From Yuukianura sp. NJ FZ-2021 (taxonomy: Eukaryota): a stretch of DNA of 64,000 nt. The translations under genes were made by a program, and so were the position numbers. Of the stretch, positions 6,781-38,182 are shown in pieces. Each line of letters starts with the position of its first letter. Within the stretch, counting starts at the first letter, position 1. The DNA is taken from positions 10,354,001-10,418,000 of the forward strand of contig CM102290.1 in NCBI GenBank assembly GCA_046563655.1, written 5' to 3'. The notes beneath the pieces are model-generated. The model was given only the letters and a program-made list of their open reading frames with translations, did not search any database and was not told where the DNA came from.

Positions 6781-9700
6781 CTAACTTTTGCTTACAACTA
6801 ACGTCGTCGTGTTGAACCGATCGGCGTGGTTTCTCCATGACTTTTTAATACATACGTTGGGCCCTCTCCACCAATCGTTGAAGTCTCTGTACACTCTCTG
6901 TGGGTTGCCCTGTCGTTGGGCATAGTGGACCATTGCGCAGAGTCTGCAGAAGAAGTGCGTGTTGACGAACTCACCAGTGCCCTTCCATGCAAAGTATGAG
7001 TTGTATTCTTCGTCATCTGCGTCCAGTTTATGGAGGAACTGTGCCAGTTCTTTTGGAGAGGGGAAGTCGTCAACGTGAATATACGACTTGTGGGGGGCTG
7101 CTCTGAGGTAGTCGTCCGGGTGAGCCCCCATCACGATCGGCAAAACATCGTTGCTAAAACAAACACGAAAAATAATCAATTTACAAGTTGTAATTTGTAA
7201 CCAAACCCAATGTACACAATGTACATGATGTTCGACCTACACAGACGTCGAACATGTTGTTACACTTAATTGACATAGCATATGGCGTGGAATAGCTATG
7301 CCACGACTGTCAAATTGGCCAATGTATCACACCGTTGTAAATGTAAAACATACCGTATACGGTTACTGTTATGTATGTTACAAACACATGCACTGTACAC
7401 ATCCATGAAATATTTTAAATTCTAAGCTCAATACTTATACAGCTTAGCCCTAAAAATATGATCAAGAAGAATATCAAAGTGCCAAACATTTAAGAAGCAA
7501 AAAGTTCAGCAATCTAAGAATGAAAGCATCAAAATCGTAAGTAGGAAAAGCGATTATAGCGCGCTTTGGTACAAAGGCGTGAATACATGTACAGTGGGCA
7601 TGCATGTAAACAATCCTATGTCCTAGTGCTGACGTAGCTGAGATTTATGTTTACAGGAAATTTATTGGAGAAGAAAGGAATGCTAGTTGGGAAAATGTTG
7701 TAGAAGGCGGAGAAATTCCCGCCTTTAGCAGTTGGGCGTGGTATGGAGTCTCAACTTACCCCAGACCGTTGACAAAGAATTTCTCTGAGATGTAATCTCT
7801 GCAGTTGGAGTTTTCAAAGGCCAAGTAGAACTTGTACGTTTTCGACAAGAGGTCAAAGCACTGTTTAGCATTTGCACGGGAACAGGAGTGAGAGCCACAT
7901 GCTCCGTAGATGTCCACCTCAATGTACTTGCCCAGTTCACGCGCATACTCCAACCGATTGTTCTTCGCCACGCAGTTAGACACAAACCAAGCCACCTTCT
8001 TGGTCTTCCCTCGAGCGTAGTTCGTTTCTGTGCCAAACAAAAACTTTTTCTTTATTTTGAACACAAAAAACATTTCAAAAAAAGAAAACAGGCAAAACTC
8101 TGGTCTACTAAATGGTTCGTTTGAATTTGCTACAGTTGGAGCGGAAGTGTATTAGTCCATTGTGCTTAGCAGGATTTATGGCTTAGGGAACTTCCTTTGT
8201 TTACAATTCTCTCTTTCTCCCAATTCACAAACTTTCTCTGCCCACATCCCTCCAAACTTTGTCCAAACCTAACCCAACTAAAAAAAAGTTTCTGATTAAC
8301 CGCCAGTTTTTTAATTAAACTTTTCTCGTTTTTTGAAAAAGTAAAACTAAACAACACCAAAAAAAAGTCATCCTCTTCAAACTTTCTCAGAAGAGAGAAA
8401 ATTATACAGTCAGGAACTTAAGATTCCATGTTTTTCAGGACTACTTATTTCAATCTGTTATTTTTAAATCTCAAAATAGGTCAAAGGTCAACTTTTTGTT
8501 GAGATTAACCTGTCACCTGACAAATGCCTGGAAATGAGAGTTCATTTGAGCAGAAAGGAGGTGGATGAGACGTTGATTAATGGGGAAAGTGAGTTCATTA
8601 TAAACAAAAGAGAAAGAACAAAGGAAATGGACAATTCTATTACAACGTGGAGTAATCTACTCAACACGCAAACTTTTACCCATCTATACAAATTTCACTC
8701 AATTCCACCAGCTTTTCCAGTTCAAATTTTTCCTGCCCCTTGATCAACATATGCCTCTCAAATACTTTTGTAAACGTAGATACATTCCTCACGTTATCCA
8801 CTAACGTCAACGAATTGAACAAAAATTTGTTCCGCCTAGGGTAAAGCAAGGAACATTCCATTCACTGAACGATTTTTTTCAATTAATGTATGTTAAAATA
8901 TGAAAATTGTGATTGACCTTGAGGGAGTCCTTTGACGTTGGGATCATAGTAGACCCACTTCTCATACGGTGTGACGATGTCAGAGTCGTGTCGATATGTA
9001 GCAGTTAGGTTGAACACATTTTTGTCCAAGAAGCTCTGCGTGTTCAGCGGACACTCGAGCATGTACATCACCCACAGTTGATTTGGCGCTCTTTGCAACT
9101 TCGGGGTCATAAAAACGTCTTTGAATACCACTGCGTCTGCTTCAGGCATTTGAGAACGATTGCCCACAAGGCGACATGCGTTCACAGGACACTTCTGCTG
9201 CACAAACACATGACGACCTCCCAGCACATGAGCCCCCCAACTCAGTCCCAGCCCATAGTACAACAAAATCGTCTTCAATTCCCGGTCGCTGGAAGTGGGC
9301 GGGGCATTCGGAGTGTGGTTCAGATTTCGTCCACTTCCGAACATACGACTCAGTCCAAGTTTTGGAAAAAAGGACGAGGACGGCGGACGGACGTCGTCCG
9401 GCGTAACATACATCAGTTGCTCAACGATTCTGTCGGACGAGGGGTTCTCCTCGGACCAGAGTTTTGACGCAGACGTTTCTACAGTGGGAAAACGTGTACC
9501 CTGCCACATAAACCAGGGTTTGCTGCTCTTTGGAACAGTTATTGCTGCGGATCCAGCCGCAACGGAGTTCAGTTTATGCCGCACTTTAGACTGGGGAGAG
9601 TTCTCATCAGCGTCGAATGGGCCGGTGACGCTGCTTGGGTCCCTTGAGAAGTTAAGTCCACCCTCGGCCGATGTGGTGTCATGATCATGCCTCGCCTCGA

Positions 9701-9893
9701 CCTGCGTCAACGGTTTCTGAAGAATCAGGCGTTTAACCTCTTCATTGAAGTTGACAAAGAGGAGAATGCCGAAGAGCGAACCGCAGGCGTAGACAATCGC
9801 TGTGAGGCGCAGACGACGTAGGCGCCTATAAATGGATCCTCTCCAGGCTGACGGAGTTGTGACACGACTGAGATGGACGGTGGCACTTTTCAT
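6781..9893 (-). CDS. FucTA: Glycoprotein 3-alpha-L-fucosyltransferase A (GT10 core alpha-1,3-fucosyltransferase); 3 coding exons, ~538 aa
   Basis: Exons 9893-8918, 8027-7760 and 7153-6781 (1617 nt, in frame). Type II TM anchor (LTAIVYACGSLFGILLFVNF). GT10 motifs TATYRHDSD, VAWFVSNC, YKFYLAFENSNCRDYISEKF, IHVDDF, CRLC; WWRGPNVC resembles insect FucTA. Confidence 0.9.
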
Positions 9894-11236
9894 TTTGTTT
9901 GCTTACAAGTTGAGTTTTCAAAACTTTCGTTTTTCCTTTTTGAAAATTTTCACTTTGCTTTCACTTGATTTTCCATTTTTGTTGTTTCTTTTCAAAAAGT
10001 ACTTTTGCAAAATTTCCAGTGCTGACTTGTTTCCATACTCAGAAATTTAGTTCCTTCCGCGTTCATCTAACCTAAAATCAGGAATAAAATTGAAAAATTG
10101 TGAAAAGTTTAGACCAGCTTAGCCTTTTTTTCTGAATTGTTTGCACAAAAACCTAATGCCTTTGCGGCAACAAATGTGTAAATTATGGATGTCATTTGCT
10201 ATCCGTGACGTTTCTGAAGTTGGTAAATTTAGCTAAATTGGGATGGAAGTTTTAAGTGGGGTTGAGCGCATAATAAAGTGGTTTCGTGTCACTTTTAATT
10301 GGTGAGTTTGTTTTCCACCCTCAAACGGGGCCCTTGGGGTGGGGATTTCCTCCCTCAGTTTTGCTTTAGGTCGTTTTTCGCATCTCCTTCTAATGGGTGA
10401 GGTAATAACCTAACCTTGGACGCTGGAAGACGTCGTAAAGCGTGTCTGCGGTTGGATTTGAAGAAAGTTGTGGCTGAAACTTGAGTTATGGGTCACCGGG
10501 GAGTCATTTCTACTCAAACTGACCTCTCAGTGCCAGCAGTTTCTAGCATTCCAGCATAAGTTGACCTCCAGCGTCTGCTGACCCTACCTATATTTCATAA
10601 ATCACAACTGCCAACTCCTTCTCTGTTAATCCAACTCAACTCTGGACATAACCGAACCGTCGACTAACATAAATCCAATTTGAGTATGAGAAAGTCAAAA
10701 TCGGGCATCAGGTTAAGTAAGCCCGTTTTCCATTACCTCAGCAAATATTCCCTAAGCAGAATTGAACTCAACACAAAAACAAAAAACGTAGTGATGAAAG
10801 CAGAATTTTTATTACCGTTCTAAATTCAGGTCGGTTTGACATTTAATTCCTGATTACGCAATTATGGTGGTTGTGTTACTGCTCAGTCTATGTTAATTTT
10901 TTGCTTATGTAAGTATTGTGTTAGCTGCTTATGCATAGTAAATTTAAAATAAAATGACGAAGAATCACGGTTCCAAAAAACACAATGTGTACGTCTAGGT
11001 TTATGTAATATTCACTGCTGATGCCAATTCTGTTTAGGTAATTCTGCTTATGTGATGGTTCGTTTCGAGATGGAGACTGACACAGTGAAAAGTGAACTGT
11101 CGTGTGAGTCAGATCCAACTAACAGAAGTTGAGACTTGAGAGACACTTCAATTTACTGCCCACTTTCCCCATGAAAGTCCAACTGAACAAATTCACATTT
11201 TCCCTGACAAGAAAATTAGGTGATCCACAAATCACA

Positions 11237-16855: not shown

Positions 16856-18850
16856 TTACTCAAAAGAATTTTGTTTTGATACAATTTTGTTTAATTGTAG
16901 TATTCTTTTCAAAAAAATTTGGTTTAAAAATTCCTTAAACTTGTAAGCTAGTAATTTGTGTAAGGCCAACTCGAAGATGAAAATCACTGAGGCCAAGACT
17001 GAACCGATGACAAGAATAGACCCTGTGCCTAAATTTGCTTGAAGGTCAAGTGCTCTGGGCAAGTTAGCGTAACCTTTGAACGCTTTAACAATAAGGTCAT
17101 TGGCCCCGAAATTCGGATTTTCACTTAACCACTTTGACCCCTCCCGTCTGCTCTGCAAACCATCATCCCCCAACCATTTTTGATACATTCCAGACGCAAT
17201 TACTTTCAAAACAAATGAATCAAGCGGGGGTCGCAGAGGTGACCCCTTGCGGTACACCCACCCCAAAATCGTTTTTAAAACAAAATGCTCCGACTTGACT
17301 AAGATCCCCCTCGACTCATGCGCATTGAGCGTCACATTTGTAGCTACAGCATAGTCAGCATTTGTTTCCCAGTCAAGACAGGCAGAGTTTGGCGTCAAAA
17401 AGGCTGCGATGATACAATCTTGTGAGTTATTGATCAGGAGAGATTTACTAAAAATTGCTTTTTGAACTGGATCTTTAGATTGACGTGTAAAATGGTATGC
17501 AATTCCCCCGTAATTTCGAAAGAACAGTTTGTAGTTTTGAGTAATCAGCTCGGCGTGAGTCGTCGGTTGATCTCCAACGTGTACAAATGTTAAAGCGTAG
17601 ATGAGACGAGAGCGATATCCGGCTGTAAGGATTAATCCAGCCAAAATCCACAAAATTGTTAACGCGCGAATTCGGAATCCTATCCAAAATCTTGAATCTG
17701 GTGAAGCTTGTTCTACAGTAATCGCTGTGATGAAGGTTATAACAACTCTGAGGACTGAAAATCGTTCCACCTTAGGTGCGGAATGTTTAAACTGGAAGCA
17801 CAGAGCTGCAAAGTAAACTGGAGTTAGCGCCAATGCAGAAAGGAAAATTAAGAGCCAAAGCCGTAGTCGAAATGGGCGGAAAATCGCTTCCCAGGAAATT
17901 GTTGGCGGGAGATTTCGAATGTAAAAGACGCGTCGTGACTCTGCCATGGCAACACCATTGTCCACGACGCCATCTCGCGTTGACGTTATGCCCATTCCGA
18001 CGCCGATGTCAGCGTCACGGTTAAAAACTTCACCAACGGCTCCGTACCATCTTCCATCTTTTTTGAACCCAGTGGCCCCATTGTTATTGGCATATTTGAG
18101 CGTAAACGAAAAGTTGAATTTTTGAGCCGCTCCTCGCAACGTTTCAAAGTAAATTCCACCAGCTTCAGCATGCGTCTGTGCAGAAGTTTCTTCAAACCTG
18201 ATCAATCCTTTTCCCATGACTGCACTGACTCTCAATACTCTTCCAGAGAGAATGGCATTGGCCGAAGGTTGTTGGAATGTGAATGTGACGACGGACTCTG
18301 CTTTGTCATGACCGATGACGACGTAGTGCTTGAAGCGTATTTCGTGAGGAAATGGAGTGGCTTGCAACAGATTCAGACTGCGACTGCTTCCGATAAAGAA
18401 AAAATGGTCTTTGGCTGGATTCGCGAATTTTTGAAAATGGAGCCACTGTGCCTGCGCAGTCAGTGTCGTGAAACGGTTTTTATGCCCAAAAATTAGAATA
18501 GCGTGACATTGACGAGTGTGCCGCAGTAGGAAATTGTGAAATGGAGCCAAAAGCTCTGTTTCATTTAGCTCCCATTGCTGTTGCTCGTCCCAGTTGTAAA
18601 ATTGTGAATTTTCGCGGGAATTTTTGAAATTTAAAATGTTGGCTACCAGAGATTGATTCTCAATGTCCAGTTCACTTGCAATTTCTTCCACTTCGTCACT
18701 TGAGTAAATCCAAGTTTGGCAGAACTCGCGTTGCTTTAATTGTCCAAAAACGTAGGTTGCTACGTCAGTATTTTTCGACAAGGTCAACTGTAGTCCAAAA
18801 ATTAAGACCGTCTGGAAGAGAACTACCGATCCAGCCATGTCGCTATGCAT
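16856..18850 (-). CDS. Divergent ionotropic receptor (IR, variant iGluR chemoreceptor), intronless, 664 aa
   Basis: Single uninterrupted ORF with an N-terminal hydrophobic leader, S1 lobe GRWYGAVGEVFNRDADIG...TSTR, WEAIFRPFRLRLW before M1, pore-region TVEQ, M3 WILAGLILTAGYRSRL, S2 ending SGMYQKW and a C-terminal M4 (GSILVIGSVLASVIFIFE). Confidence 0.9.
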   Translation of the reverse strand: MHSDMAGSVVLFQTVLIFGLQLTLSKNTDVATYVFGQLKQREFCQTWIYSSDEVEEIASELDIENQSLVANILNFKNSRENSQFYNWDEQQQWELNETELLAPFHNFLLRHTRQCHAILIFGHKNRFTTLTAQAQWLHFQKFANPAKDHFFFIGSSRSLNLLQATPFPHEIRFKHYVVIGHDKAESVVTFTFQQPSANAILSGRVLRVSAVMGKGLIRFEETSAQTHAEAGGIYFETLRGAAQKFNFSFTLKYANNNGATGFKKDGRWYGAVGEVFNRDADIGVGMGITSTRDGVVDNGVAMAESRRVFYIRNLPPTISWEAIFRPFRLRLWLLIFLSALALTPVYFAALCFQFKHSAPKVERFSVLRVVITFITAITVEQASPDSRFWIGFRIRALTILWILAGLILTAGYRSRLIYALTFVHVGDQPTTHAELITQNYKLFFRNYGGIAYHFTRQSKDPVQKAIFSKSLLINNSQDCIIAAFLTPNSACLDWETNADYAVATNVTLNAHESRGILVKSEHFVLKTILGWVYRKGSPLRPPLDSFVLKVIASGMYQKWLGDDGLQSRREGSKWLSENPNFGANDLIVKAFKGYANLPRALDLQANLGTGSILVIGSVLASVIFIFELALHKLLAYKFKEFLNQIFLKRILQLNKIVSKQNSFE

Positions 18851-19955
18851 TTGACCTTTGACCTTTAGTTTCTTCGAATTTTGTCGAACTTACGAACTTA
18901 TCAAATTTGGCTCAAGTTTGGTCAAACTTGTTTCAAATCCAAATAATATTTTGGATAAATCGGATGTTATCCTTTTTTGGTGGCTCAGAAAACATTAGTG
19001 AGGTGGAAATTCAAGAATAATATTGGTGGAAGTTAAGTGTTTGAGTAGATGGAATTTGTCTTTGTCAGAATTTGACATGATTCAGTTTGGGCGTGCTATT
19101 TTTCGTGTTGAAGGCATTAGGAGAATTAAAAACTTATAGAAACGTCATTTGACCTGTCACAATCACTCTTCTTCATCCATTTACTCAAATCACCAATGGT
19201 CATAGTCAAGGTCACAGCATTGCGCATTGACATAGTCGATGTTCTTGTACAAAATCATGTTTTCGTGCAATTGAACTCCAAAAAAAGTATTCAAAAAATA
19301 TGAAGAAAAGTTTGGACAAAATTGCAACTTTTTGTAAAATTTGCACAACTTAGCATACAGATTCCGGAATGCTTATGGACAGCAGCTTATGGTCCATATG
19401 ATGCACACTTATGGATGGACCCTTACGGAGTGTCAAGTATGGACATAAGTGTCCCTCCATAAGTGTATTAGTCATAATAAGTGGCTGTACATGAGGATCC
19501 TGCCACGAGCATACTTATATCGTATATATTTACATGTACTCATAACGTTATATATTTCAGATTACAATTTTTTTTATATATTTTCATAAGTTATATGCCT
19601 TACGTTTTCCTGTACCTAATGCTCTGGACGTTGAACTTTGTTCTAAGAATATAAATGAGCATGTTTGGGACAAATAGGATGTAGGTTCTGATATGCCTTT
19701 TAACTTAGGCTTTAACTTAACTTTTATCACTCCGGAAGGTCATCGGTCCTGTTGACATTTTGTACTTCAGTTCAGCTGCGCAATTTCGCTCGCAAAACTT
19801 AAAAGTTCATACGTCTACTTTTTCTAAGTTTAGGTTTTACGTTTTTTATTAAAAGTTTTTGATAAAACGCATTTTGTTGTTGGCTCGTGTTGCAGTAGAG
19901 TGGCACTCTAGACATAGACACCATCTTGAAGAAACAAAAAGTTAGGTTAGGCAGG

Positions 19956-22900
19956 ATGAAACTGATCGGATGCAGCAGCGTCATTGTCGTGCTGCTCGTG
20001 ACTTTGACCTCCAAGGTCACCACGCGCAGATTAGTGGTCCTTGACGAAAGTAGAAGAGATTCACCTGGAATGCAAACAGACAGCAAATACTGCGTAGCAC
20101 CAGTGACCTCTGACCTGCCCGACTGCAAAGTCAGTTTCCGCGAGGATTCAGGATGGACGAACCAGTTCAACGCCACTTGCATCCGACCCAACGTTTTCCT
20201 AGTCAACTATGACAGGTTTAACTTTATTGTTGCGATTACTTTAAATCTTTGAACACTCATGACGAAAAATGTTGTATTTGTCGATTCTAATTTGTTTACG
20301 ACAGACCGTCAAAACAAAGTGGGAGCTCGGTTGACGCACGGCGCGTCTACGCACTGCCAACAGACGATAGTTCCCCTCCGCCGTACGTCCGTTTCACCTG
20401 TGTAGCAACTTTTCCAATCGACTTTGCATTTGAAGGAAACGGAGTAGGTTGAAATTTAAATTTTTTTTGAAGATTTCAAAATTTTGAAAACGTAATTTTG
20501 ATGTGTTAGGCTATTGAATTTCTACGAGTATGGAAGTCAGTTTCGTACGTGAATGGAACGGATACGTTTGATCGTCAGACGCTGAACGTAGAGCTGCTCG
20601 CTACGCCCTCTGCGACGGGACGCTTCGTTTTCTATTCTATTGAAACTCCGACACACGAAACTTCCTTCTTTATCTTTGCTGAACGTAAAACCTTAAAATA
20701 ACAAAGCAATTAATTAATTAATGTATAAAAAGTATTAGTATATTATTCTGAATATAGCTCCCGAAAGTCCGTTTCTGGTAACACCAGGTCAAGCTGCCAA
20801 GGCGTTGACTGGCAAGTACGACTCAGCTAGTAGTGTTACGAACATTCCTTGTATCGTCTCCAACAGAGTTGCCAAAGTTGAACTATTTGAATTAACCGGG
20901 GTGATTAAAAACACGCAATAATGAATTTAAAATCTATTGCCATAAAATTTTGACATATTTTTTCATAGAGTAATTGGACTTTACTTGGAAGTTCAGATCA
21001 AAATACTACGCATATGGAGTACACACCAGAAACTGGATTTACTTTCACTCATGTTGTTCCAGTTGAAACTACACAATTAAATTTCCAGTGTCGTGAGGGC
21101 AGCGTCAGCGCTTTGAATTTTACAGTTTCAGTGCGAAACTCCTCAGCAGCGTCTCAAAACAGTTCAGTATCAACTGCGACTGCGCTGAGAATTTTTGTGA
21201 CCACTGCTGCTTCTTGTAGTGGACCAGAAGGCGAAGGGCCGCTCAGCTTCTTCAACGTTTTTGTAAGAAATCCTACGGAGGCCAATGTCGTCTCAGAGTG
21301 TCTCCTCCGGGTAACTTTCAAATTTTGAAAGAAGTATTTCCAAAATGAAATTCAGTTTTGGAAATTCCGGATTTTGAAAATTTGTAGGGAGTTAGAAACT
21401 GCGGAATGGACACTATTTATCACAAGAGGTACGATGGGACGCCGTGTGAATTTGCAACATGTGCTACTATCCCCGCGTCCCAGCTTCATCGTGAAGGACT
21501 TCTCGTTTGTATGGGAAAAACAATGTCTTCAACAGTGAACTACTTCAAGGGCTTCGACGGACTAACATGTAATTTCAAAATAAAAAAGAAAATCAATGCT
21601 TGAAATTTTAATTTAAAATTTGATTTCAGACACTGATACCGCACAGGCTCCAGCCTCTGCTCTGTTGAAGGTCAAAGTGACCCAGTCGGGGTCATCGACT
21701 TTCTCTAATCCGTCTCCCACTGAACTTGTGACAGGAGTCAGGTACAGTGTGGCTGACTTTTTTTTTTCAAATTTTTTAACTTATGATGCTTTGAATCTCA
21801 ACTTGCTTTAAATCTGACCCCGGTCAGGTACGAGGTCAAGTGCAACAGCGTGGAGTTTCCATTTGTCAAGGAATCGCAACTGCTCTTTGTCAAGTACAGA
21901 AACGGAAGTCAAGAACTCTTGGCGGGTACAAGTTTAAGTGAAAACTGATTCATATTGACTAATTAGTTTGATGATTAATGAACATTTGACGTAGAATTGG
22001 TTTGGTGGAAGGCTGGGATTGAGTTGTACTTGACACCGGACATGATAGAGCTTGAATGCAAAGATCGTCATTGGACGAATAATGCCTTCTTCAACTCATC
22101 TACTCCAATCAATGTCACAGGTTTCACCAAATTTTGAATAAAAAAAAATAGTTTTTGAATAATTTTTCACAAAATTTTATGAAAATTTGAAAAAAATTTT
22201 TTTTAGACAAGCCGTGTACTAATGATCAGTTCCGCTGTAAATCTGGACAATGTATACGTGACACATGGCGATGTGATGGAGACAACGGTAAGTTTTTTAC
22301 ATAAGATCTTAATATAAAATTGCTTAAAAATAAGATTCATTTAACTTTATGGAAATGTGTTTCTTTCTTTCTAGATTGCGCGGACAGTTCAGGTAATACT
22401 CAACGTTTATACTAAAATCTTGTACACTTCAATGGATTTTCACCTATCAAGAATTAAACTTGCTACTTAAAACTTTTTTTTTTCAGATGAAGCTAATTGC
22501 CACAGTAAGAATAATAGATAGGATTCGGTTTGGTTTTCAACAGTAGAAAGTCTATTGCTGAAACCTGTAGAGTAAGAAAAATCATAATTTTAACTTAACT
22601 TTCTCTTTAGATCATGTATGCAAGCCGGATTTTTTCAAATGCTTAAGTGGTAAGTGCCTATTCGTCAATTAAATTAACATAAATTGTGTTAAAAACTATT
22701 TTTGTTTTAAATTTCGAAGGTCAGTGCATTTCAGTTGAAAAGAAATGCAATAATAAACGAGAATGTCCGGACGGTACTGATGAAAGCTCTGAAACGTGCT
22801 CAAGTAAGAATTTGAAAATTAAACATATTAAAAGAAGTTACATAAAATGTTTAAAGTTTATAATAATAATGTGTTTAGGTGTGATCTGCACTGCTGCTGA

Positions 22901-23940
22901 ATTCAAATGTCAAAGTGGGCAATGGTAAATGAGTCAGAATTTTTCAAACTCTTTTGAATTAGTTATTTCAATTTGAAACTTTTCAATTTAATTTGTTGAT
23001 TCATTTTTTTGTTTCTCTACGTAGTGTGCTTGCCCAATTTTTGTGTGACGGAGACTCCGACTGTGAGTAGATCTTTTTTTGGTCTAAAATTTTTCTGAAA
23101 AACGAAATTGTATTGTCTGGTGTAGGTTATGACAGATCAGATGAGAGTCAGGAGAATTGTGCAAGTAAGGTCAAAGGTTAACTTCAATTTGTTGCAAAAT
23201 TCGTGTTAATTTTTTCAAATCTTGTGCAGAATACTATCCAACGATTGTGAGTTCATATCGGAACGTGACCATCGTAGAAGGCTCTCCAGGCGAATTGATT
23301 TGTGATACTGCCCCACTTCCAGCAAAACTTCAGCCAAGAATTGAGTGGTGGAGACACAACACTGTAAGATCAAAAAGTATTAAATATAAAAATAAAACAC
23401 ATAATAAAATAAATATAATACAAATATTAATTCTTTGACCTGAAGAATATCACTGACATGACCAGACTCTGGAGGAACTTTGATGGATCCAAACTGGCAT
23501 TGAAGTTTTCCGCTGCAAATCCAGTAGATGATGGGGACTACACTTGCTTTGCTGAAAACATGCTGTCCAGGTCATTCTTGACTTTCCGGGTCAAGGTCAT
23601 TCCAAAAGAGTCTATTACCGATACATCCGAAGGCTCAAATGACTTCCCTTGTGACTACGACCTTGACCAGGAAGACTGCATTTCCCGGCTTTGCAAAACA
23701 CATCCTAGGTTGACTTTTTGTCAAAATCAAAGCGATCAACAACTTCTGACTCAAGTATCGACACATACTGGAGTAGTACCAGTGTGGGTCATGTTGCTTG
23801 GGACTTTTTGTATTTTGCTCATCCTCATCCTACCGGCAGTTTACATTTGGCGACACTACAGACCTAACTTACGTCTACCAAGGGGGGCTGTTCGATTCGG
23901 TCAAGAAGATGAAGTCATGATGGACAGAAGTGCCAACTAG
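19956..23940 (+). CDS. Type I membrane protein: signal peptide, several divergent VEGFR/PVR-like Ig-type domains, 3 LDL-receptor class A repeats, Ig domain, TM, short tail; 19 exons, ~855 aa
   Basis: Exons 19956-20215, 20305-20443, 20510-20684, 20758-20900, 20969-21310, 21388-21568, 21630-21741, 21828-21925, 21995-22120, 22207-22287, 22375-22392, 22487-22504, 22611-22649, 22720-22803, 22879-22924, 23025-23062, 23126-23164, 23230-23363 and 23446-23940; total 2568 nt, all phases compatible. LDLa1 is [35 protein letters not shown]. The Ig domain has [19 protein letters not shown] is [23 protein letters not shown]. Confidence 0.85.
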
Positions 23941-25600
23941 TTTGTGATTTTAAGTAATAAATTAAACTATTTAACTAACTAAAGGCGAAAGTTTTTAAGA
24001 AACTGAAGGTCGTAAATTGTAATTTCCAGTAAAGTGACAATAAACTTATTTTGATAAGCGCGAAACGCTTCTGGCGTCAGTATTTCTTCAAAATTTTCAA
24101 AGGCGCAAAATTCAAAAGTCAAAAAAATAATTTAGAAGGGTTGGCCAGTTTCTGCCTTACTCGCAGAATTAGGTAGCAAGGATGAAAAAGTAGGCACTTG
24201 AAAGACACAAAGCTTAGCACAAACTATCTTGGATATTAGCTACTTGAAACTTCATAGTTTACCTAGTACCCTTTTTTATCTACTTTAATATGATTACTAA
24301 TACCTACTACATATCGCTATTCCTTACATTAGGTGCTAATGTTAACTTTTCAGTAGCTTTTTCAACGTCTTCAACTTCGCTTACCAACCAATTCTAAGAA
24401 AATCTGCACGACTAAACTTATAGTTCTGAGTGTCCTCCTTTCGCCTCCATTAAAACAAACAGAAACCTTGTGTAACTAAGCAGTTCCTTTGCGCATGTAA
24501 TACTTATCTAGGCAGTCGTATGAAAGAATTTTAGAGGTTATTGTGCTGATCAGAAGTAGTTTCCGAGTTTTAAAACCGCCAAGGAAACTTCCTCTGCAGT
24601 CTTTTCAAAACTCGGGACATAGTTCTGTGCAGAACGATAGTTAAACAAAAAGTTTATATGAAGGATATTTGGTGTCATGAAGTAGTGGTCAACCAACGAG
24701 TATACATGTTAGTTTCCGTTTGATATCCTGGTTACACCTAATTCAGTGGGGTAGGCAGATACTGTCCATCCAAAATTTAACTTCATAGCATTCAGACCTT
24801 TAGTCGGACCCCACTCCGGTATTCGAGATTTACGCGGGAACTGCTGCTGAAAATTCAAAAGTGTGAAATCAAAACAAAGCAATCAATCACATCGAAGACT
24901 AATCATTCATTTTTCAATTAGCGGCTACGACTCCAAAAGTAATTAATATACCTACTGGTACTTATTAATTGGTTCATTACTATCGCAGGTTTTGAAGGAA
25001 AAGAAGGTGTGTTTTGCAGTTTGCCAGGTCAGTTCACTTTTATCGAAATTTGGAGTTTTCAGTGGAAGGAAGTTAAACTACAGTTTGTGTAAATTGTATG
25101 ATTGTATTTTATAGGACAGTAGAACTCAGCTGGGATTTGTCTACAGTCTTTACGCAGTGTTTACAGTGTTTCTCTTTCTCCCGTTATCAACGTAAGTAAT
25201 TAGTAATTGGCCTTGATCTGACTCTAACTTTCATACATTACAGAGTGGAGTTGGAGTTAGTTTAAGTTTCGTTTAATGGTGGGTTAAGTTCAAAAAGTCA
25301 TCTTAAGACTTTTGTAGATTTAGACACACGTATCGAATGAGTATGAAGTCTAGGATCTAGAAGATCGAACTACAGTATTAGCGTAACGTTGATAGCATCT
25401 CTGAAGTTACCTAATGCCTCCAATTTTTGGAACTTAAGAATAATTTTGATCTAGATTTATATTATTAGATAGATAAGCCGGATTCTGCGTGTTTGCCACT
25501 GTCGGTATTCACGATGGTGGTATACAGTAACTGAAGTACTTAGAAATGAGTGCGAATTACAGCCAGTTAATTGGTTTTATTGATTCTATTATTGTATAGG

Positions 25601-27402: not shown

Positions 27403-28555
27403 GTGAGTATCACTATCTCTTGTTTTTAGTAAGTAGGAGACTAAAATGCTAACTTATTTAAGTAGAACCTGAAATGACTGAGGACGAGGGTGAAGTTTAG
27501 TAGGCGTCGTGGGGTTCTTTGACTTAAGTTCATCTATTGCCTCATCTCCATCGCCTAACGGAATGGGAATGGGACAATGGTTGGAATTGGAAAGTAAAGA
27601 ACTAGAATGATGAAGTCAGAAAATAGCATGGCCAAAACTAAAGTTCAATTCCGTCGTCCATAGTCGTTTGCGAGAGAAGTTAGGGGTTCAGTGCAGGGTT
27701 CGTTGGTCTGTTGGTTTCGTGTGTTCGTTTTTTGATAAAAAAAAAAGCTGGTTTATGGTTTAGATCTGGTTTGTATTGAAAAGAGTTTAAGTTTAAACCA
27801 CGTTTCGAATGAATTGAAACCAACCGAACCCTGGGTCAAAGTCACAGTCAGTTCTGGGTGGAGTTGTTGCGAGACGCTAATCCATTATCACAAATCACAA
27901 TTCCAGTGGAGTTTCCACAATTGATTCAATTCAATTGAATCAATTGTGAAACTAACAGGTCAAGTTTGTTAGGCGAACAACATCATGTAGTGAAAGGAAG
28001 TTGAACCTCGTTTCTCTGTATTGTAATGACATCAGCAGATGAAGTGAAGAAGGGAGTTATCTGGGTTGGTTCAAGATAAATTGGCCCTCTAAACCAGTAG
28101 TTTGTGTAATTTGTAATTAGTAGTTCAAGGCGTTGAGTATTGATTAGTTTAACACCCCGCTCCTGTAATTGGGAAGTTGCGATGATCAACTTTGTGCCCT
28201 TTGGGATAAATAGTGCATAGTGAATGTTCACAGGGTAAAGTACATGGACGTTGATCGCAAATTACACGTCATCTCATTGCAGAAAAAAAAACAATTTTTG
28301 ATCTCGTGCAAAATTTCCACCTCTTACTGAAAAATCTGCATGAGATCGAACTGCTTTTCCAGTTTTTAGCAACCACTCAACTCATCTCCAACGTTCATGA
28401 ATTTCACCAACTCCTCCAAATTGCACCAATTTCGCAATTGGACTCATCGTTCATCTCCTATTTAGCCCTAGGCCAAAGCAAATCCCATTCTTCAATGTTA
28501 GGCTTACCGCAAACCAAAAGTCTAGTAACGCCTGCATACCTTTACTAACATAGGC

Positions 28556-28848
28556 TGTACCATAACTCCCTTTTCTCAAAAATTGCAAAACAAAAATTCT
28601 TTAAAAAAAAACAAAGGATAATTTTTTAAACTAAGAACAAAAAAAATTATTTTTTTTTGTGCCAATTTTGTTTTAGTACAGCCATAACTCAAACTAATCT
28701 CTGCCAGATTTAGTTTTTGCTTAAAATTGCAATTTGCAAAATCATATATGCAGATAAGCGAAAGATCGAAAATAAAATTCAGTTTTTAAGTTTTTCAGTT
28801 TAAAAAAAAATAAATCCAAAGAATTTTAAGAAATGGAGTTATGGTACA
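28556..28848. mobile_element. MITE-like element, ~293 bp
   Basis: Perfect 14-bp terminal inverted repeats TGTACCATAACTCC (28556-28569) and GGAGTTATGGTACA (28835-28848), extending imperfectly inward; AT-rich non-coding interior. No clear target-site duplication. Confidence 0.5.
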
Positions 28849-30239
28849 AACTGTGAAGGGAAAATGGAGTTAAACCTTGCATCCTACCGCTTCATCTCAT
28901 CATCAGTAACGATTATTGTTGTTTTGTGGAAGTTGTGTAGGTGTCGCCTTGTATTCTTATTATCCGTAACGGTTGGGCTCTGCTTGACGTTGAGCGTGTT
29001 GATCTGTTGCTCAATTTGGTTGGTTGATGTCTACGGTCATTAGCATTAAGGTTATTAAGGCTCTAAAGTCAATTGGATTGAGTGGTAGTAGGAGTTTGAA
29101 TGGATTTGAGTGATGAAAAGTGGGGATATGACTAATTGCTTTGCCACACCAACATAACAATGGGTTTGAATCGATGTGCATGTTCCAAGGACGTCAAAAT
29201 TGTCTCCGATTCCGGAACTGATCTGGGAAGAACGGGCTTTTGTGCACAGATCGTAGTTGGAACATGATTCGGAAGATGGGAAGGGCGGAATTAATGCGGA
29301 AATGCAACGATGGAACCCTAAGATTAATTCAAAATAGGAGAGAAAGTGGAGGGGAGAGACTTTCTCCCTCGCCCAAGTCGTTATTCCTCTTGCTTCAAAA
29401 ATCCCATGTTCAAATGATGTTAGACAGATCACTTTTTTTTTTGGTTTATCAAATGCTGGGGCGTGATTTGTTTTAAAATGTTATTTTAGAGTCGTCTGTG
29501 AGAGGGTTGGTTGTTCTGTTTTTAATTGAGCTCTTAAGGGCTAGGAACATGGGAGTTAATGGGGATTTGACAAAGTGCTTATCCCGTCAAGTTTTTGAAA
29601 CACGCAGCAAAATTTAGTAATTTAATGGGTTTTGCTCGTGTGTCTTTGAAAGACATGACATGATCCAGTTAGTTCCTTTTCGTCTGCTGATTCACTCAAA
29701 TTCTGCTCGTGATTTTTAGGATGAAGTGAAATGGCTCATAAAAATTATTATTATGTTGAGTTAAGCAATTTTTGCATAATGCTGACGATTTGAGTAGAGG
29801 ATTGACTTGTTTTTGGTTAGAATGACGCAGTTTTCGTGGATGCAGTCAGAACTATTGGATGCATTTGGTTTTGTGTATGCAACTGTCGGATCGATTTCGT
29901 TTTTTTTTTACTTTCTTTTGTTGTTGCCTTTTAGGGCGTAGTTCATTTGGAAGTTTGTAGTTGGTTTGTTTGGTAGTGAAAAACGGTGGGGTTGACGGAA
30001 AGACGGAATACTTGCTGTATTATGCATGTGCTTCTGCCCGAAATGTCGGTGGTGACTTTGAACCACATTGGTTTTTTTCTTTCAGTGTCAAACCATATGC
30101 AGAAATGAGTTGCTTTTTTTCCATTTTTCAAATGAGGCTAAAATAAAAGAGATTATGGTAAATATGCAACGTCAAAACAATTTTATGGACAGGAAAATTT
30201 TAATTTTTGTGTCATTCATTTCTTCAGCTTGGGGATTAA

Positions 30240-30470
30240 GATTTCCATGTTGAGTCCGTTTGATTTTCATGTTCAGAATTTCTATGTTGAAAATTTTGAT
30301 TTTCATGTTGAGGATTGCGATTTCCATGTTCAGAATTTTGAATTTCGTTTCAGGTGAGGATGATGATTTCCATGATGAGAATTTTGATTTCCATTTTGAG
30401 AATTTTGAATTCCAGGTCGTAGAATGGGATTTCCAGGTTGAGGATTTAGAATGAGGATTTTGGAATTTGT
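30240..30470. repeat. Degenerate 21-bp minisatellite (approx. GATTTCCATGTTGAGAATTTT)
   Basis: Consecutive units gatttccatgatgagaatttt / gatttccattttgagaatttt / gaattccaggtcgtagaatgg / gatttccaggttgaggattta. This explains the low-complexity ORFs at 30172-30612 and 30260-30454. Confidence 0.7.
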
Positions 30471-33400
30471 ATTTTTGGTTTTTGACTATGAGGGCTGAGG
30501 ACTTCTTCACCTTATGGATTGACCTCTGACAGACGTAGTATAGGTAGGGGAAAGCAAAGTAATTGATTGGGGTTGGAAGGCCATGGCGGGAAATGAACGT
30601 TTTGGGAAACATTTTGAAGGAAAAGTAGAAAGTGAGGCTCGTAGGAATGGATATTGTGGGGACGAAATGTTAGGTTTTAGGTGCTCTCCAGGAAAAGTTG
30701 GATTGGAAAAGTACAAGAGATGAGTCACGAATGAAGGAAAGGCAATGCCTCGGAGGAGAAAGTCCGCTTTGACTCACTTCCCAACGCATCTTGTCAATTT
30801 TCGCTTGGTTTCCAGATATATCCAGGGATGTTGGATGACTCAATTTACGTCCATTCCGTATCTCTTTTCCAGAAAGTAGTTTTTGTGCAAAGTGGAAGAA
30901 CAAAGATATTGTTCGTTTCAAACAGTTTTTTGGCTGTTGTTGGTTGTGCTCCACTTGTTGGTTGATCTCAAACAGGAAGATGGATTGAAACACTGCAGGG
31001 TAGTGTTTGCAGGATGATGTCATTGGGATCAGAAGCGTTTCAGTGCCGGTGACGCATTGGTGGCAACAGTTGACTCTGTCCATGACTCATGGTTCTTTGA
31101 ACTATTAGGTTTCATTTATTTTGTGGTGTTTATGTTTGAGAGACGACTAAAAGCATTAAAAGTTGGTGTTAGGAGAATCCAAGTATGAATTAAGGACGAG
31201 GAGTCATTGGGCAGGAAAGAATTTGGCAATAAGAAGATGTGGAGAGGATGCACTTTTGTTTGGATTATAATCTGCTGGCTGGTTGCCTGTTTAGTTGTGC
31301 TTTAGGGTCAAGTCCAAGTAGACTAAAAGGTCAAGTCCATAAATCTCAAACTCACTTTATTATTATTTTAGTGTTTTTGACTTTGTTTCTGTTTCGAGAT
31401 GGAAAGATGATTGGGAGGTTTGGTTAGTTAAAAGGTGATGTTTTTAGTTTAAAACAAGCAGGAATTCCAACTTCTGCAACAATTTCATGTTGTTTAGTGC
31501 TAGGTTGAAGTAATTAGATTGTTGTGGCTGGGAGTAGGAGTGATGTGATCGTGAGGTTGGAATTTGTACAAGTTGTAATTTAGAATATATGGCTTAATAG
31601 AGATGAATTGGAGTGGTGATTGGGTTAAGTACACTGGGTGAAGTAGTTAGGTTTAATAACTGTAGTTAAGCTTACTGCCATTTCACTAGTAAAACCAGCC
31701 TCCAATCAACCCTTAATTGTTAATTCAGTTGGTTTTAATCAACATTTAATCAAGAACATACACTTGATCAGTTGATCGTACGTGGTTGATGGCCCAAGGA
31801 CGAAGTTAACCTAGTCCGTGAGAAATTGGACCTTGACATACTACTACTCCCAGTTTTTCCGACTGTGGGGAGTGGTCGGGAATCAATCAAATTAAAGATT
31901 CCAATCAAGATTGGCCAATAAGTATTGTAGAAAAAAAAGCCTATGTTATATCTATGATCCAGATTTGGTCAAACGTTGAAAACGCAAGAGGTCAAAATAT
32001 CAAATATCAAAAGTGTCGAAAATAAAAATTTGACAAAAGTGAAAAGGAGAAAAATTGATGAAAATTGGAAGGATCTGAACTTAATGATTTGTAAACTTTG
32101 ACATTTTCACTTTTTACTTTTTGACTGTTTCATTCTTGGCCATTTTACGTTTGACATTTCTACTTTTGACCATTTTATGTTTCGTATTTTCACTTTTGAC
32201 CAAATTATTGTGTCCGTTACCTTCTAACAGAAAAAACTTGGAAAGTTGAGAGTTAGTGCTGGTTTGGTCTTTTACTTGCTTAAGGATTGAGATGCAGATG
32301 AGCGTAGAATTGTCTCGCTTTCTTCCAATAATCTGGATAGATAATCTGCACAGATTCAAATTCTTAATTTAAATTGTATCTAAAAAGACTGTGAAGTGAG
32401 GAAGAAAACAATGAAGATTATTTGGAGCTTGACAAATTATGAAAGGAACGCTTCCGCTGCACCGCCACAGAAGCGGCACATAGAGAAAGTTAAGTTTTTG
32501 ATGCTATTCTAAAATGCATATTTTCTTTCTGTGAAATCTGAGACTGCGCTGAGATGGAGATGGTTTTAAGAATTTTATTGTTTGAGATGTGAAGCTGCGG
32601 GATGTAAATACTAAAGGAAGATGCTGTTCATTGAAGCCTGTCTTCACGCCCATTAAACTTTGATTTGGTCCACAGATAAAGTTGATTCTCCTCCACCAGG
32701 TCCTAGTCCTCTCGTCGTCACTCGCGGCCATTTCTCCCCCAGCGACTCTTGTCAATTTGAGCATTTCCAAAATTCTGCACAAATTGACACTGACGGACAT
32801 TGAATTTCCTTTTGTTGTGATTTTGGAAGTTGTCTTGAGGAAAGTATAATTGGAGCTCCATTGTTATTTTTTAGATGTGTAATAATTGAGGGTTTGGTGA
32901 AGCAGATTTTTTGAGCGTTGTGGGAAGAGGAACAAAAGGAATTTGCAAGGAATGGAAGTGATGGAAGCGCTGCATGGGAGGAGTAATTAAGCGTCTCTCA
33001 ATTACAAATTCTCAGGAATACCACCTCTGTCAGACGTACACAAAGGAGCGGTTTCAATTTTTGAATGTTCCCACCTCCTGTAGCCGCTAATTTAGTTTTT
33101 GAATTCATCCGAGCTCATATTGAGACTCCACAATTAACATCACCCCCGCAGCCATCAATCTTGAGAAACAGCGGAGTTTGTGGGGTTGGCTTATTGCTTC
33201 CGGTTCGGCATTTTCAATGGATTTTTGTTTCGCTTTGCAATATGGGAACTGTTTTGAAACTGAGGTTTTTGGCTCGTTTTTTGTTTGAAATTTTGAAATT
33301 ATGGTTAGTGATTTGTTGGAGGAGATTCGGACATGGTTGAGATGTGAGGGAAAGTGATGAGATGGTTGAGCCTGAGGATGATGAATGGAGTGGAAGTGGT

Positions 33401-34836
33401 GCTTACTGGGCTTATCACCTTGAATCTCCAAGTATCATTGACATCTGACGAAAGTACGAGTGCTGCAACTGCACCGCTAAAGTTCTATTTTCAGGACCAC
33501 TTCAATACAGTTTTCGAGTTTTCTAAAAATTTGGGAATTTAAGATACTCGAAGTCGAAATTTCGTGCTAAAAGGAATCTTTTTAGGATGAAATCCGAAGT
33601 TTGAGCTTTGAGAATTCTAGATTTTGAGGTGGGAGGGAATGAGGGAAAGGTGTGGCATTTCAGTTAATGTGCAACAAGTGTTGAGATGAGTAGTTAAGAT
33701 TATTAATTGAGATTGATGTAGATTGAGTGTCAAGATGAAATGATAAAGTGGCTAAATTGCATTGGCAGTTAGTGATTTAGTGTAGAACGTACGCAAATGA
33801 GGGATACATCCCGTTGCTACCCCCTTGCAGTAGAAATGAATGTAGTTTTGCTAAGAATTATTTAGTTGGGGTTATTATTTGAAATACTACGGTAACGGAC
33901 AAGGTGTGTTGGCTGAATTTTGTGGTAAAATGGAGGGTTTAGGTTTAGGCAAGGCTAAATGGCTGCTTGACTGGCTGAATATTGCTCAAATGCTGTTCTC
34001 TTTGTGATGGGAAGTGGTGATGAGTTGCATCCGTTCCTCTAAAATGCAACTGATCCAACCATCACAAACTGTTTCAACCGTGTCATCAGGGTTAGGATCA
34101 TCACACTAACAATCGGAACATGTTTAGGTTGACTAACTTGATTCTTTAGTAGGCTCATTTCTGTTAGTGTATAGCTTAGGTATTCCGAACATAGATTGGA
34201 CAGAGATGACAAATTGTTTTGGGAAATGGGAGTGGGGAATCGTGCGGGGAAAATAGTTTTTGCATGAGCATTCCTTCCCACCTTTTTCCCAACTCCATCA
34301 CAATGTCTTGTAAATGCAATGCAAAATTGTCGGTTCTTTTGTGTTAAGATGTATTTTCTAAAAATAAAACTCGTGCTCTGTGGAGTGGAAACTGAGGTGA
34401 TTTTTGTTAAGAAATCTTTGGAGGCTTTTTTTTTAGCTTAGAGCGGAGAAATTCAATTTGTAAATGCAAAATTTGCTGCGATTTCGAAACCAATTTTCGG
34501 AAAATTGCAAAGACGCAATTGTTTGTGTTGGGATATTTCCATTGAAATTGGATTTCACTTTAACATTTTTTTTTCTGTTTGTGAATAGAGGTGGAATTAA
34601 AATTTTCAATTTTCGTGACTTCTTAACTAGGCTGAATTATCTGTCTGTCCTTGAAAACAAATTAATGTTTGTGGAAAAGTTTGATCAATTGGCGAGTTGT
34701 TGTGAGTTGAGGGTAGAAATTGAGAAATTATGAAATTTTGTTTACTCATCTCTGTAGTTTTCTGAATTTAATTTTTTCTAAAGTCGAAATTGATCTGGAT
34801 CCAATTATTGTGAGACTGTCGTCATTCCGTATAATA

Positions 34837-35132
34837 ATGGCTGACTCAGGTAACCTGAATGGCTCACGTGGAACAAGTGATGATGACAGACGCATTTCCA
34901 TGATGGGTGGGGAGGTTTCCTGTGATTTAGAATCGTTTTTAACTTTTTCCCATGAAAATTTCAAGGGTCCAGGGAATCTTGTTCTTGGAATTTTAAATTT
35001 TAAAATCCAAGAAAGTGTGACGAATAAGATGAAAATTCAGGGAACGAACAATATCTCTCTCAGCAGCATCAGCATCGTCCGTGCTCCATTGAATTCCAGA
35101 TTGCCTTTACAAAGCCCTGCAAGCAGATTTAG
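34837..35132 (+). CDS. Jupiter: Possible Jupiter alternative first coding exon B (MADSGNLNGSRG...QSPASRF-R), possibly with an internal intron ~34915-35040
   Basis: Open frame from ATG 34837 ends TTT AG/gtagat, a phase-2 donor compatible with the acceptor at 48904. The donor is weaker and no homology was recognised. Confidence 0.4.
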
Positions 35133-37277
35133 GTAGATGTACCACAATTTTGTTATGAAAAGAAAAAGAAGTTTGAAGTTTAATTTTTTTGGAGAAAAAG
35201 TTTCCGAACTTGAAACTCTAAAAAAAGAAGTTTTTTTACGATGGTCAAATCTTAAGATAGAACTTGGATTGGCCACCTAGCTGAAGGCTGGAAGCTTAGA
35301 AAATGGAAATTTTGATTAAAATTGCTTAGAGTGCAGTGGCCCGGGAGTTTGAATCTCCCTTGAGGTCGTCGTGAATTGCCTCGTTCGTTGGACTATTTTT
35401 AAGAAAGTAATAAAGGCACGACTGAGATTTAAAATTTGCAAGAAACGAAGAAGCCCAGAGGAGAGAGCGATTATTTCGTGAGAAGTGTTTTTGTATCTGA
35501 GATTGAGAGTCAGAGCCCCATGCCTAATCGCTTTCCGGAATGACATGTCCAAAGGAAGATGACGAAGGAGGATGACAAATAGGTTGCTGCACTTCTCCTT
35601 CTGCTGCCATCCGAAAATGATCCACTTCAAAGAACCTTCTTCGTCATCTTCCCCAAAAGCCAAAAAAAACTTTCTCATTTCGAAGGAAATTGGTAGTGCA
35701 ATTTGGGAATTTTCAATATACAGCCTGTTAAAAATTGTAGAAACAAGAATGCAGAATTTCCAACCAATTAGAAGATGTGAGAGAGTGTTGTTCTGTTGAA
35801 GATCGTAGCGTAACTAAAATGAGGAAGTTGAATTAAGTTGATGTTTTTAGAGAAAACGTGAGTAGTAAAAGTGGAGGATGTGTTTGTGAATGGAACTATT
35901 TTTAAAAAGTTAAACACCCTTTCAAAATGTATTTGAAAATTGTTGTGAATTGGTGGTTGTAAAAGTGGAAGTCCGTGGGAAACTGAACTGTTGAGGTTTT
36001 CTTTCTCTTTAAATTTTTTTTGGTGATTCGTAGTTTGTTGAATTTGATTTTTGAGAGTGTTGATGTGGGTAAAAAGTATAATGAGAAAAGGGAATTAACC
36101 GCAACTCCTCAAGTAACTCTTGCTGCGGTTTTCTCAAAATGAGGATCCCAATTGTACTTGGTTTCCATTGTGTCTTTTTTACCTTTGTGGTTTTCACTTA
36201 TGTTGAGAGATGAATATCCATCTTCCGTCTGAATTTGATTCGGAGATCACATCAGTTCGAAGGAAACGACTACAATTGCTCCCAAGCAGCACAATTTCTG
36301 CACAACTTTGCTTTTCCTGGGAACAGCATAAGGATTCAGTTGTTTTTGAAAAGAAATGAATAAATTCCGATGTCGAATTGAAAAACGAATTCCGGAATGG
36401 TGTTGTTTAAAAGCGAATTCCGAAATTGTGTTGTTTAAATTCATTGGATTGGAGTCCATATAGAGCAAGTTGAGTTGAGATCCATGTACGGCTGTTGGTT
36501 GGAATTATTCAATTTGAAAAATGTGCGTTTTCCATCCAGAAATTGTGGAGAGGCTCCAAGGGGCGTCCGAGTTCTCCCTGGAATTCTCATGATCTCGGCT
36601 GGACAAGAGAGAGTCCTGCGGAGATCCAGACTCTTGTAAATTATGCTTAGGCGGATGTCAGGGCACTCAATTGAGAAATGTATACAATAAAGTTCCCGAT
36701 TCAACTTGAGAGTTTCCACAATTTAAAAAAAACGAAGCGTTTGAAGAAAAAAATTTTTTCTGGGGATGAACAAATTTTATTTTGAGGTTTTGAATAAGTT
36801 TAGTTTAGTTGAATAAGTTTGTGTGGTCATAAATTGTAATTAGGAGAGTACTATATGTTTTTGTGTAAATTGGGAATTGTATGATTGCCCAATGGTGGTA
36901 GTGATGATGAGGAGAGTGGTAAATGGCTTAAGTGTTGTAATTGTGAGGAACCACAGATACCGCAAATGGCCCTTACGTCTTGCTTTTTCTCATTTTCCTC
37001 TTGTGGTTGGGCTAGGTTGATGAGACTCATTAGGTTTGTGAATTAGGGGGACCCTGGAGGGTCAATGGCGTGACCCTTGGCTTGGAAATGTGTTACTATG
37101 TTGGAGGTTTCCAGAATTTCAAGGACGGTTGTGTGTATTTCAATTTGTTTTCTGTACAGAAATCTAAAGTAAGCATGTTACTGCAAGTTTCAGTTAGATT
37201 AGGTTCATACATTTACAAATTTCAGGGTAGAGTTAACGTAAGGTTCGTAAAATTTTAATAATGTTCATTCAATTTTT

Positions 37278-37432
37278 CATGCTTAGATTTTGACGTATTC
37301 AGGTTTTTTCCTGCTTAGATTTTGGCGTATTTAGGTTTTGGCCTGGTTAAATTTTCTCGTCGTTAGACTCGCGTCCGTTTAGATTTTGGCGTAATTCAGG
37401 CTTTGCGTTGCGTAGAATTTTGTTGTCTAAAT
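37278..37432. repeat. Degenerate short-period tandem repeat (ttagattttgRcgtattYagg-like units)
   Basis: Recurring gcttagattttgacgtattcagg / gcttagattttggcgtatttagg / tttagattttggcgtaattcagg. Confidence 0.55.
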
Positions 37433-38182
37433 CTTGTCACGAGTGAGTCTGTCAGTGCTGGAGGATGGGAATGAATAATTTCCAGGAGTTGTAGTGGGTA
37501 GTAGATTTAACTAACTTTGTAATTGCAGAGTTAATTAAGACAAGGTGAGAATGTTTGGAGTGGTGGGTTGCAGTAGTTAGTGTTGAAATGAAGTTCAAGA
37601 GTAGAAAAGTGTAACGGTGAGGAAGGATGCGGACAGGGTGGCATAAAATATTGGGAGGTTGTGCCCCACCACAGCCACCATTCCGTCCCACAGAAGCCCC
37701 TTGTCTTGTGGTCCCAAGGGCTGTGGATTCCACCTTGATTCCGCTTAAGAATGGACGACAAGTCGCAGTTAAGAGGCAGTTGGAAGCTGGAAGCGGAGGA
37801 AAGCTTAGGTATTACATTGGAAATAGGAATTTGTTAACTTCAGACTAGGAGCTAAGGAACACTCTCCAGAGGGAAGTTGAGGAAATTGAATTTTGGAAGA
37901 GAGGGTTGAGTTCTATTTCTATTTCGGTGGGTCTATTTGTGGATCTCCAGACACTTTTCCCCACGACCGGAACCAGTACCACGCCAAAGGGAACTGTTCG
38001 AAGAGTACACTTCCAGAATTGTATCTACGCACAGCAGAATATAATTAGGACGGAGGCAGGGGAAAGGAGCAGTTTACACCGAGACACGCAGGAAGACGCA
38101 CGCAGGAGTTCCAGCCGAGTTGGCATTTTCAAAAAACAAAAAAAAAACTTCAAAAAAGTTGGCATTTAGACGAACGACGACA

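Follow-up and report, generated by a model that had tools for sequence, protein, structure and literature searches.

What kind of protein is encoded at positions 19956..23940 of a 64,000-nucleotide stretch of the Yuukianura sp. NJ FZ-2021 genome (GenBank assembly GCA_046563655.1, contig CM102290.1, positions 10,354,001 to 10,418,000; the whole stretch is referred to below as the window)? An earlier note, made from the letters without database searches, had read the locus as a kinase-less chimeric receptor, in which a PVR/VEGFR-like immunoglobulin (Ig) ectodomain is followed by three LDLa modules, a further Ig domain, a transmembrane (TM) helix and a short tail. We favor the reading that the locus is one intact gene for a lineage-restricted type I membrane glycoprotein, which would act as a non-catalytic surface binding protein, either a ligand-capture receptor or a co-receptor, and we put the probability of this at roughly 0.55. 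The part encoded by exons 1–9 is called the head. All positions are those of the window, and those of the gene are on the + strand.

Gene structure

Stop-to-stop frames and the raw sequence reveal short + strand coding pieces lying between AT-rich spacers. Nineteen exons, joined by hand at frame-keeping GT..AG sites, give 2568 coding nucleotides and an open frame of 855 amino acids, which runs from an ATG at 19956 to a stop at 23938–23940. All introns of the model are GT..AG, and they are 61–106 nucleotides long. The model reproduces the protein length given in the earlier note, and the strings quoted there each sit inside a single exon (exons 2, 3, 4, 5 and 19), TGRFVFYS being in exon 3 and YTPETGFT in exon 5. 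Exons 1–5 (19956–20215, 20305–20443, 20510–20684, 20758–20900 and 20969–21310) are backed by a relative described below, while exons 6–9 (21388–21568, 21630–21741, 21828–21925 and 21995–22120) were placed by open frame and splice consensus only. They are followed by exons 10–14 (22207–22287, 22375–22392, 22487–22504, 22611–22649 and 22720–22803) and exons 15–19 (22879–22924, 23025–23062, 23126–23164, 23230–23363 and 23446–23940). A polyadenylation-type hexamer, AATAAA, is read directly at 23956..23961, 16 nucleotides past the stop, and tblastn found no second copy of the gene in the window.

Database searches were run exon by exon rather than on the spliced protein, which lowers their power, notably for domains split between exons. 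The Pfam scan covered 13 exon translations, the six short exons 11–13 and 15–17 being left out.

Conservation of the gene

A phmmer search with exon 5 against 1.84 billion protein representatives gave six matches at E<=0.001. One of these was colinear, a fragment of 94 amino acids (P0004, E 5.9e-6); the others were set aside, four being multi-stretch repeat proteins (Calx-beta, HYR, mucin WxxW and ankyrin) and one, P0001, having no Pfam family. A scan of metagenome contigs traced the DNA of P0004 to a contig of 6070 bp (L001), on which six GT..AG exons give an open frame of 350 amino acids equivalent to exons 1–5, with the same intron phases and with one additional intron that divides the exon 1 equivalent. 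Over 343 aligned codons the two proteins are 47% identical, and the proportion of nonsynonymous differences (pN) is 0.36 against 0.83 for synonymous differences (pS), synonymous sites being saturated between them. All eight mature cysteines of the aligned part are kept, as are the glycosylation sites N72 and N148. DNA similarity is limited to three exon patches, of which the sole long one (20146–20200) is 89% identical, and upstream of the gene there is no synteny with L001. Because a relative with 47% amino acid identity, saturated synonymous sites and a full set of conserved cysteines exists, we take the locus to be a real animal gene under constraint.

The conservation is unevenly distributed. 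Block A (residues 45–87, 20088..20215), which contains three cysteines and the N72 site, is 74% identical to the relative over 43 codons (pN 0.18, pS 0.73), and block B (residues 114–191, 20384..20683), formed by the end of exon 2 and exon 3 with the intron 20444–20509 inside it, is 69% identical over 78 codons (pN 0.205, pS 0.95). Exon 3 alone is 67% identical and exons 4–5 are 48–29% identical, the weakest identity (13–37%) being found in the signal peptide, residues 22–44 and exon 5. As judged from these alignments, in which the two species are deeply diverged, purifying selection on the tip of the head is strong.

We note that the additional intron of the relative has an unusual composition. 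Its 82 nucleotides (L001:4582-4663) are almost wholly a 75-nucleotide copy, 97% identical, of L001:4752-4826, a source that spans the junction of the next exon piece with the intron after it; ATGCAGGTT occurs at both ends of the 82-nucleotide intron. This intron appears to have been gained recently, its AG|GT splice sites being provided by a local duplication.

LDLa and Ig modules

Exons 10–17 encode three LDLa modules. Against a Pfam cut-off of 24.1 bits, Ldl_recept_a (PF00057) scores 35.4 bits in exon 10 (E 1.3e-8), which belongs to module 1 (exons 10–12, 22207..22504), and 25.2 bits in exon 14 (E 1.9e-5), which belongs to module 2 (exons 13–14, 22611..22803); module 3 (exons 15–17, 22879..23164) was recognized from its residue pattern and from tblastn cross-similarity to modules 1 and 2. 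The six-cysteine/acidic pattern that we take to define LDLa is present in all three modules (residues 541–563, 580–604 and 621–645), and it is complete only once the exons are spliced, microexons included. Since splicing restores complete modules, the joining of the exons is not a matter of chance. Every module is divided among two or three exons; in vertebrate LDLR the layout is one LDLa module per exon. The acidic calcium-cage end of module 1 is encoded by two consecutive microexons (22375–22392 and 22487–22504), each of 18 nucleotides and both phase 1-1.

A membrane-proximal Ig domain with Cys671 and Cys725 follows in exon 18 and the start of exon 19 (23230..23607). Both of its halves were matched in Pfam, exon 18 by Ig_3 (E 0.014) and exon 19 by I-set (E 0.0034). 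In PDB, exon 19 matches titin (1.4e-5), contactin-2 (7.5e-5) and MAG (5.6e-4), and also neurofascin, FGFRs and Robo; given this range of partners, the domain is best described as a generic I-set Ig. The stretch between it and the membrane (23608..23772) forms a juxtamembrane stalk with four cysteines (760, 769, 774 and 783) and matches no Pfam family.

Introns are of phase 1 at all four module borders (before LDLa1, LDLa1|2, LDLa2|3 and LDLa3|Ig), which is the classic signature of exon shuffling among LDLa and Ig modules. The suggestion in the earlier note of an exon-shuffled decoy is reasonable in its first part, on account of these borders, and unsupported in its second.

Membrane anchor, tail and absence of a kinase

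Hydropathy analysis finds two hydrophobic segments only. The N-terminal one is a signal peptide of about residues 1–21 (19956..20018; windows above 1.6 from residues 1–4, with a predicted cleavage site), and the N-terminus of the relative is likewise hydrophobic at the matching position. The other, at about residues 801–826 (23773..23850), is the sole internal peak, reaching 2.78 and followed by basic residues, and constitutes the TM helix. Together with the Pfam matches and the LDLa pattern, this upholds the overall architecture described previously: a head, three LDLa modules, an Ig domain, a TM helix and a short tail.

The cytoplasmic tail has 29 residues and ends with the stop codon (23851..23940). 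A regular-expression search of its last 26 residues found none of the motifs [DE]xxxL[LI], NPxY or YxxPhi, and the three preceding residues, RHY, cannot hold an NPxY. The sequence EDEVMM (residues 845–850) had been likened to an acidic dileucine-type sorting signal. It is non-canonical, fitting only the relaxed pattern [DE]xxx[LM][LIM]; when the last 26 residues are shuffled 20,000 times, this pattern arises in 6.3% of cases. We regard the proposed sorting signal as unsupported.

The protein has no kinase domain, as had been proposed: the short tail ends in a stop with the AATAAA close behind it, and none of the 15 open reading frames of at least 60 amino acids between 23.9 and 29.5 kb matches a Pfam family at E<=0.01. 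HRDLAARN-type catalytic-loop, DFG-type and PxxW-type motifs are absent from all six frames of the whole window, in which the sole kinase-like string is an isolated glycine-loop-like one on the minus strand at 44018.

Affinities of the head

Of the 13 NxS/T sites of the protein, 10 lie in the head, which also contains 14 cysteines (46, 57, 75, 119, 223, 280, 322, 350, 358, 373, 378, 394, 456 and 505). Beyond the signal peptide and blocks A and B, the remaining ectodomain is encoded by exons 4–9 (residues 192–526, 20758..22120) and includes a Ser-rich linker at about residues 297–312.

No Ig family in Pfam was matched at E<=1 by any of the nine head exons, in an exon-wise test that is weak on split domains; the same scan did match both halves of the membrane-proximal Ig. 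The best Pfam matches of the head exons were to three unrelated families at E 0.057–0.21, all under their cut-offs, and no family attained its cut-off for exons 4–9. Sequence searches of PDB covered seven of the nine head exons (1, 2, 3, 4, 5, 6 and 9), and no receptor kinase was among the matches listed. Exons 1, 6 and 9 gave no matches at all. The seven matches of exon 2 are five to UBE2G2 and two to Fab light chains (E ~2), and the nine of the exon 3 profile are to glyoxalase II and glutamate dehydrogenases. Exon 5 gave five and its profile four. For exon 4 there were 114 matches, and 137 with its profile, the best 60 of each being all streptavidin. Block B has neither a Pfam nor a PDB relative. 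The half-Ig of exon 19, which served as a positive control, matched Ig proteins in PDB at 1e-5 to 0.1.

The streptavidin matches of exon 4 come from a hairpin-like stretch of 21 residues (20766–20831), partly kept on L001, at E 0.006–0.06. They represent one protein in many PDB entries, and we judge the similarity to be due to chance or convergence.

The phmmer search with exon 5 against 1.84 billion representatives returned no receptor tyrosine kinase. Smith-Waterman comparisons of five head segments with each other and with the Ig domain of the gene itself gave z-scores all below 1.5. A language-model look-up, whose own lead level is 0.9, placed exon 5 nearest to an unnamed cluster (0.85) and also listed several Ig-family clusters at 0.79–0.80; for exon 3 the best value was 0.76.

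The earlier assignment of the head to VEGFR/PVR-like Ig domains rests on short motifs that no search backed statistically, and we regard kinship with PVR/VEGFR as unsupported. A cysteine described as lost in TGRFVFYS is equally absent from the corresponding TGRYIFHS on L001; its absence is therefore ancestral rather than the result of a recent loss. As far as sequence comparison can tell, the head of about 500 residues is assigned to no known family, and its fold may still be Ig-like.

Proposed function and alternatives

From the outside inward, the mature arrangement would be a beta-rich, cysteine-stabilized head of about 500 residues that follows the signal peptide, three LDLa modules, an I-set Ig, a four-cysteine stalk, the TM helix and the 29-residue tail. 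In the reading that we favor, the conserved tip (residues 45–191) would be responsible for specific recognition of a ligand, and the LDLa modules, which are expected to bind calcium, could provide calcium-dependent binding of basic patches on the ligand or on a partner. Because the tail contains neither a kinase nor a canonical endocytic motif, any signal or uptake would presumably have to pass through another membrane protein.

Three other explanations have to be weighed. One of them holds that two genes have been merged in the model, exons 1–9 encoding a secreted head protein and exons 10–19 a separate LDLa-Ig-TM protein. The donor of exon 9 is indeed weak (CAG|gtttca), and the 22120/22207 junction was derived from genomic sequence alone; but the two parts are only 86 nucleotides apart, no in-frame ATG followed by a signal peptide occurs in the spacer, the junction is of phase 1 on both sides with the frame kept, and a head left unspliced would stop five codons into the intron. 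We consider two genes very improbable. Taking the gene as one, the head could be a PVR/VEGFR-type Ig ectodomain shuffled onto an LDLa-Ig-TM cassette, so producing a receptor that lacks a kinase and would act as a decoy or sink for ligands of the PVF type. Such an origin would account for the IPC-x-V and GF motifs and the F-strand-like stretches (IPCIVSN is identical on L001 and the GF is retained), for cysteine spacings of 57, 72 and 49 (223–280, 322–394 and 456–505) that by eye fit Ig-like domains, and for the Ig-family clusters in the look-up with exon 5, though these lie under the lead level. It is at odds with the Pfam result for all nine head exons, with the lack of receptor kinases among the listed PDB matches of seven of them while the half-Ig of exon 19 does score, with the phmmer search and with the low internal z-scores, and we think it decidedly unlikely.

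Alternatively, the protein could be an LDLR-like endocytic receptor for cargo or for scavenging, in which the LDLa modules would capture ligands of the lipoprotein or protease-inhibitor type while the acidic Met-Met tail served as a dileucine-type adaptor signal. All three modules are complete and the tail fits the relaxed motif; in addition, the LDL-receptor-like domain II of perlecan is reported to bind LDL (PMC4859157). Against this stand the absence of canonical motifs from the tail, the frequency of the relaxed motif among shuffles, the absence of a YWTD propeller or EGF module from the 13 exon translations scanned, and a conservation that is concentrated in the tip of the head and not in the LDLa region, as far as it is measurable. 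This explanation too we hold to be unlikely.

Several points weigh against our own reading of a single gene for a non-catalytic binding protein. The gene model was built from genomic sequence alone; comparative support extends over exons 1–5, the contig of the relative stopping about 240 nucleotides past exon 5; and the function is deduced from domain content alone. In LDLa module 2, N and E replace acidic residues at two positions that we take to belong to the calcium cage, and this module may not bind calcium. A non-canonical sorting signal in the tail is possible. AlphaFold2, run on exon 5 alone with a two-row alignment, predicted strands only, at a mean predicted local distance difference test score (pLDDT) of 37.9, which fits a beta-rich region and says nothing further.

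A more specific proposal, which we put forward tentatively as one possibility among others, is that the head, and especially its tip (residues 45–191), is an undescribed extracellular recognition module, and that in combination with the LDLa3-Ig-stalk-TM cassette it defines a new family of non-catalytic receptors restricted to a springtail-like arthropod lineage. The protein may also be a kinase-less binding partner of the receptor kinases of its lineage. Should the head represent a new fold or ligand-binding module, the gene would give access to a lineage-specific receptor system of soil arthropods, which are poorly annotated; if the head is an ordinary divergent array of the Ig superfamily (IgSF), the protein would be merely another mosaic IgSF/LDLa surface protein.

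Surroundings of the gene

About 1.07 kb upstream of the ATG, and in head-to-head orientation to the gene, is a single frame of 677 amino acids on the minus strand (16856–18889); this adjacency is not conserved on L001. The frame contains ligand-binding and channel regions of the ionotropic glutamate receptor type (PF10613, 5e-7; PF00060, 0.005) and is probably a variant ionotropic receptor of the chemosensory type. Farther upstream, fucosyltransferase-like exons occupy 6781–9902 on the minus strand, with PF17039 (Glyco_tran_10_N) matched at 3.3e-20 by a frame of 339 amino acids at 8886–9902. In the region 28000–48000 downstream, the GC skew stays positive for about 20 kb (0.10–0.29 in bins of 2 kb), and there are few long frames and small tandem repeats only. 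Two further loci on the minus strand were recognized by eye only: frames resembling an ankyrin-repeat and DHHC palmitoyltransferase (53069–55323), and a homeodomain-containing frame that runs past the end of the window (62791–63999).

Comparison with known systems

The architecture had been described as belonging to no named family, and our searches agree with this. Three word-indexed searches, with three exons, matched no long protein: none of the 116 candidates of exon 19 reached E<=0.001, none of the 1222 of exon 5 with P0004 reached E<=0.01, and none of the 139 of the exon 3 profile reached E<=0.1. In the metagenome-contig scans, exon 19 had no match, and a candidate in a bacterial metagenome-assembled genome (L002) was rejected as a chance match of 14 residues. 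A full-text literature search found nothing on such an architecture among the papers listed, which is weak evidence given that it worked by word matching only.

With the class III/V receptor tyrosine kinases (PDGFR/VEGFR and insect PVR) the protein shares its type I topology, a large cysteine-containing and apparently beta-rich ectodomain, the IPC-x-V/GF motifs and a membrane-proximal Ig. Unlike them, it has no kinase and a head without detectable sequence similarity to theirs, and LDLa modules are, to our knowledge, foreign to that family. The LDL receptor family (LDLR, VLDLR, LRPs and the arthropod lipophorin and vitellogenin receptors) likewise combines tandem calcium-cage LDLa modules with a single TM helix and a short tail. 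The present protein differs in lacking NPxY and in having an Ig domain and an orphan head in place of EGF/YWTD modules, neither Ldl_recept_b nor EGF being matched in the 13 exon translations scanned (exons 11–13 and 15–17 left out).

The CUB-LDLa auxiliary proteins (NETO, SOL-1, LEV-10 and MIG-13 of C. elegans, and LRP3/10/12) are non-catalytic type I proteins in which one or more LDLa modules are combined with a binding head and a short tail; they act via partner receptors. No CUB domain was matched at E<=1 in the head exons of the present protein; it is nevertheless alike in its putative binding head, its LDLa modules, its short tail and its lack of catalytic function, and an ionotropic-receptor-like gene adjoins it head-to-head.

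Domain II of perlecan, represented in Drosophila by Trol, consists of four LDLa modules and one Ig domain. The resemblance lies in a tandem LDLa cluster followed directly by a single Ig (here residue 645 is the last of LDLa3, and the Ig starts at about residue 647) and in the phase-1 module borders. Regions of LDL-receptor and Ig homology in perlecan are described in PMC4859157. Perlecan, however, lacks a TM helix, being a huge secreted proteoglycan of the basement membrane that contains SEA, laminin-type and LG domains, whereas the present protein has 855 amino acids, is membrane-anchored, carries an unrelated head and has no SEA, laminin-type or LG domain in the exon-wise Pfam scan. Phase-1 module shuffling would here have produced a membrane-anchored form of an LDLa-Ig combination that is otherwise known from secreted perlecan.

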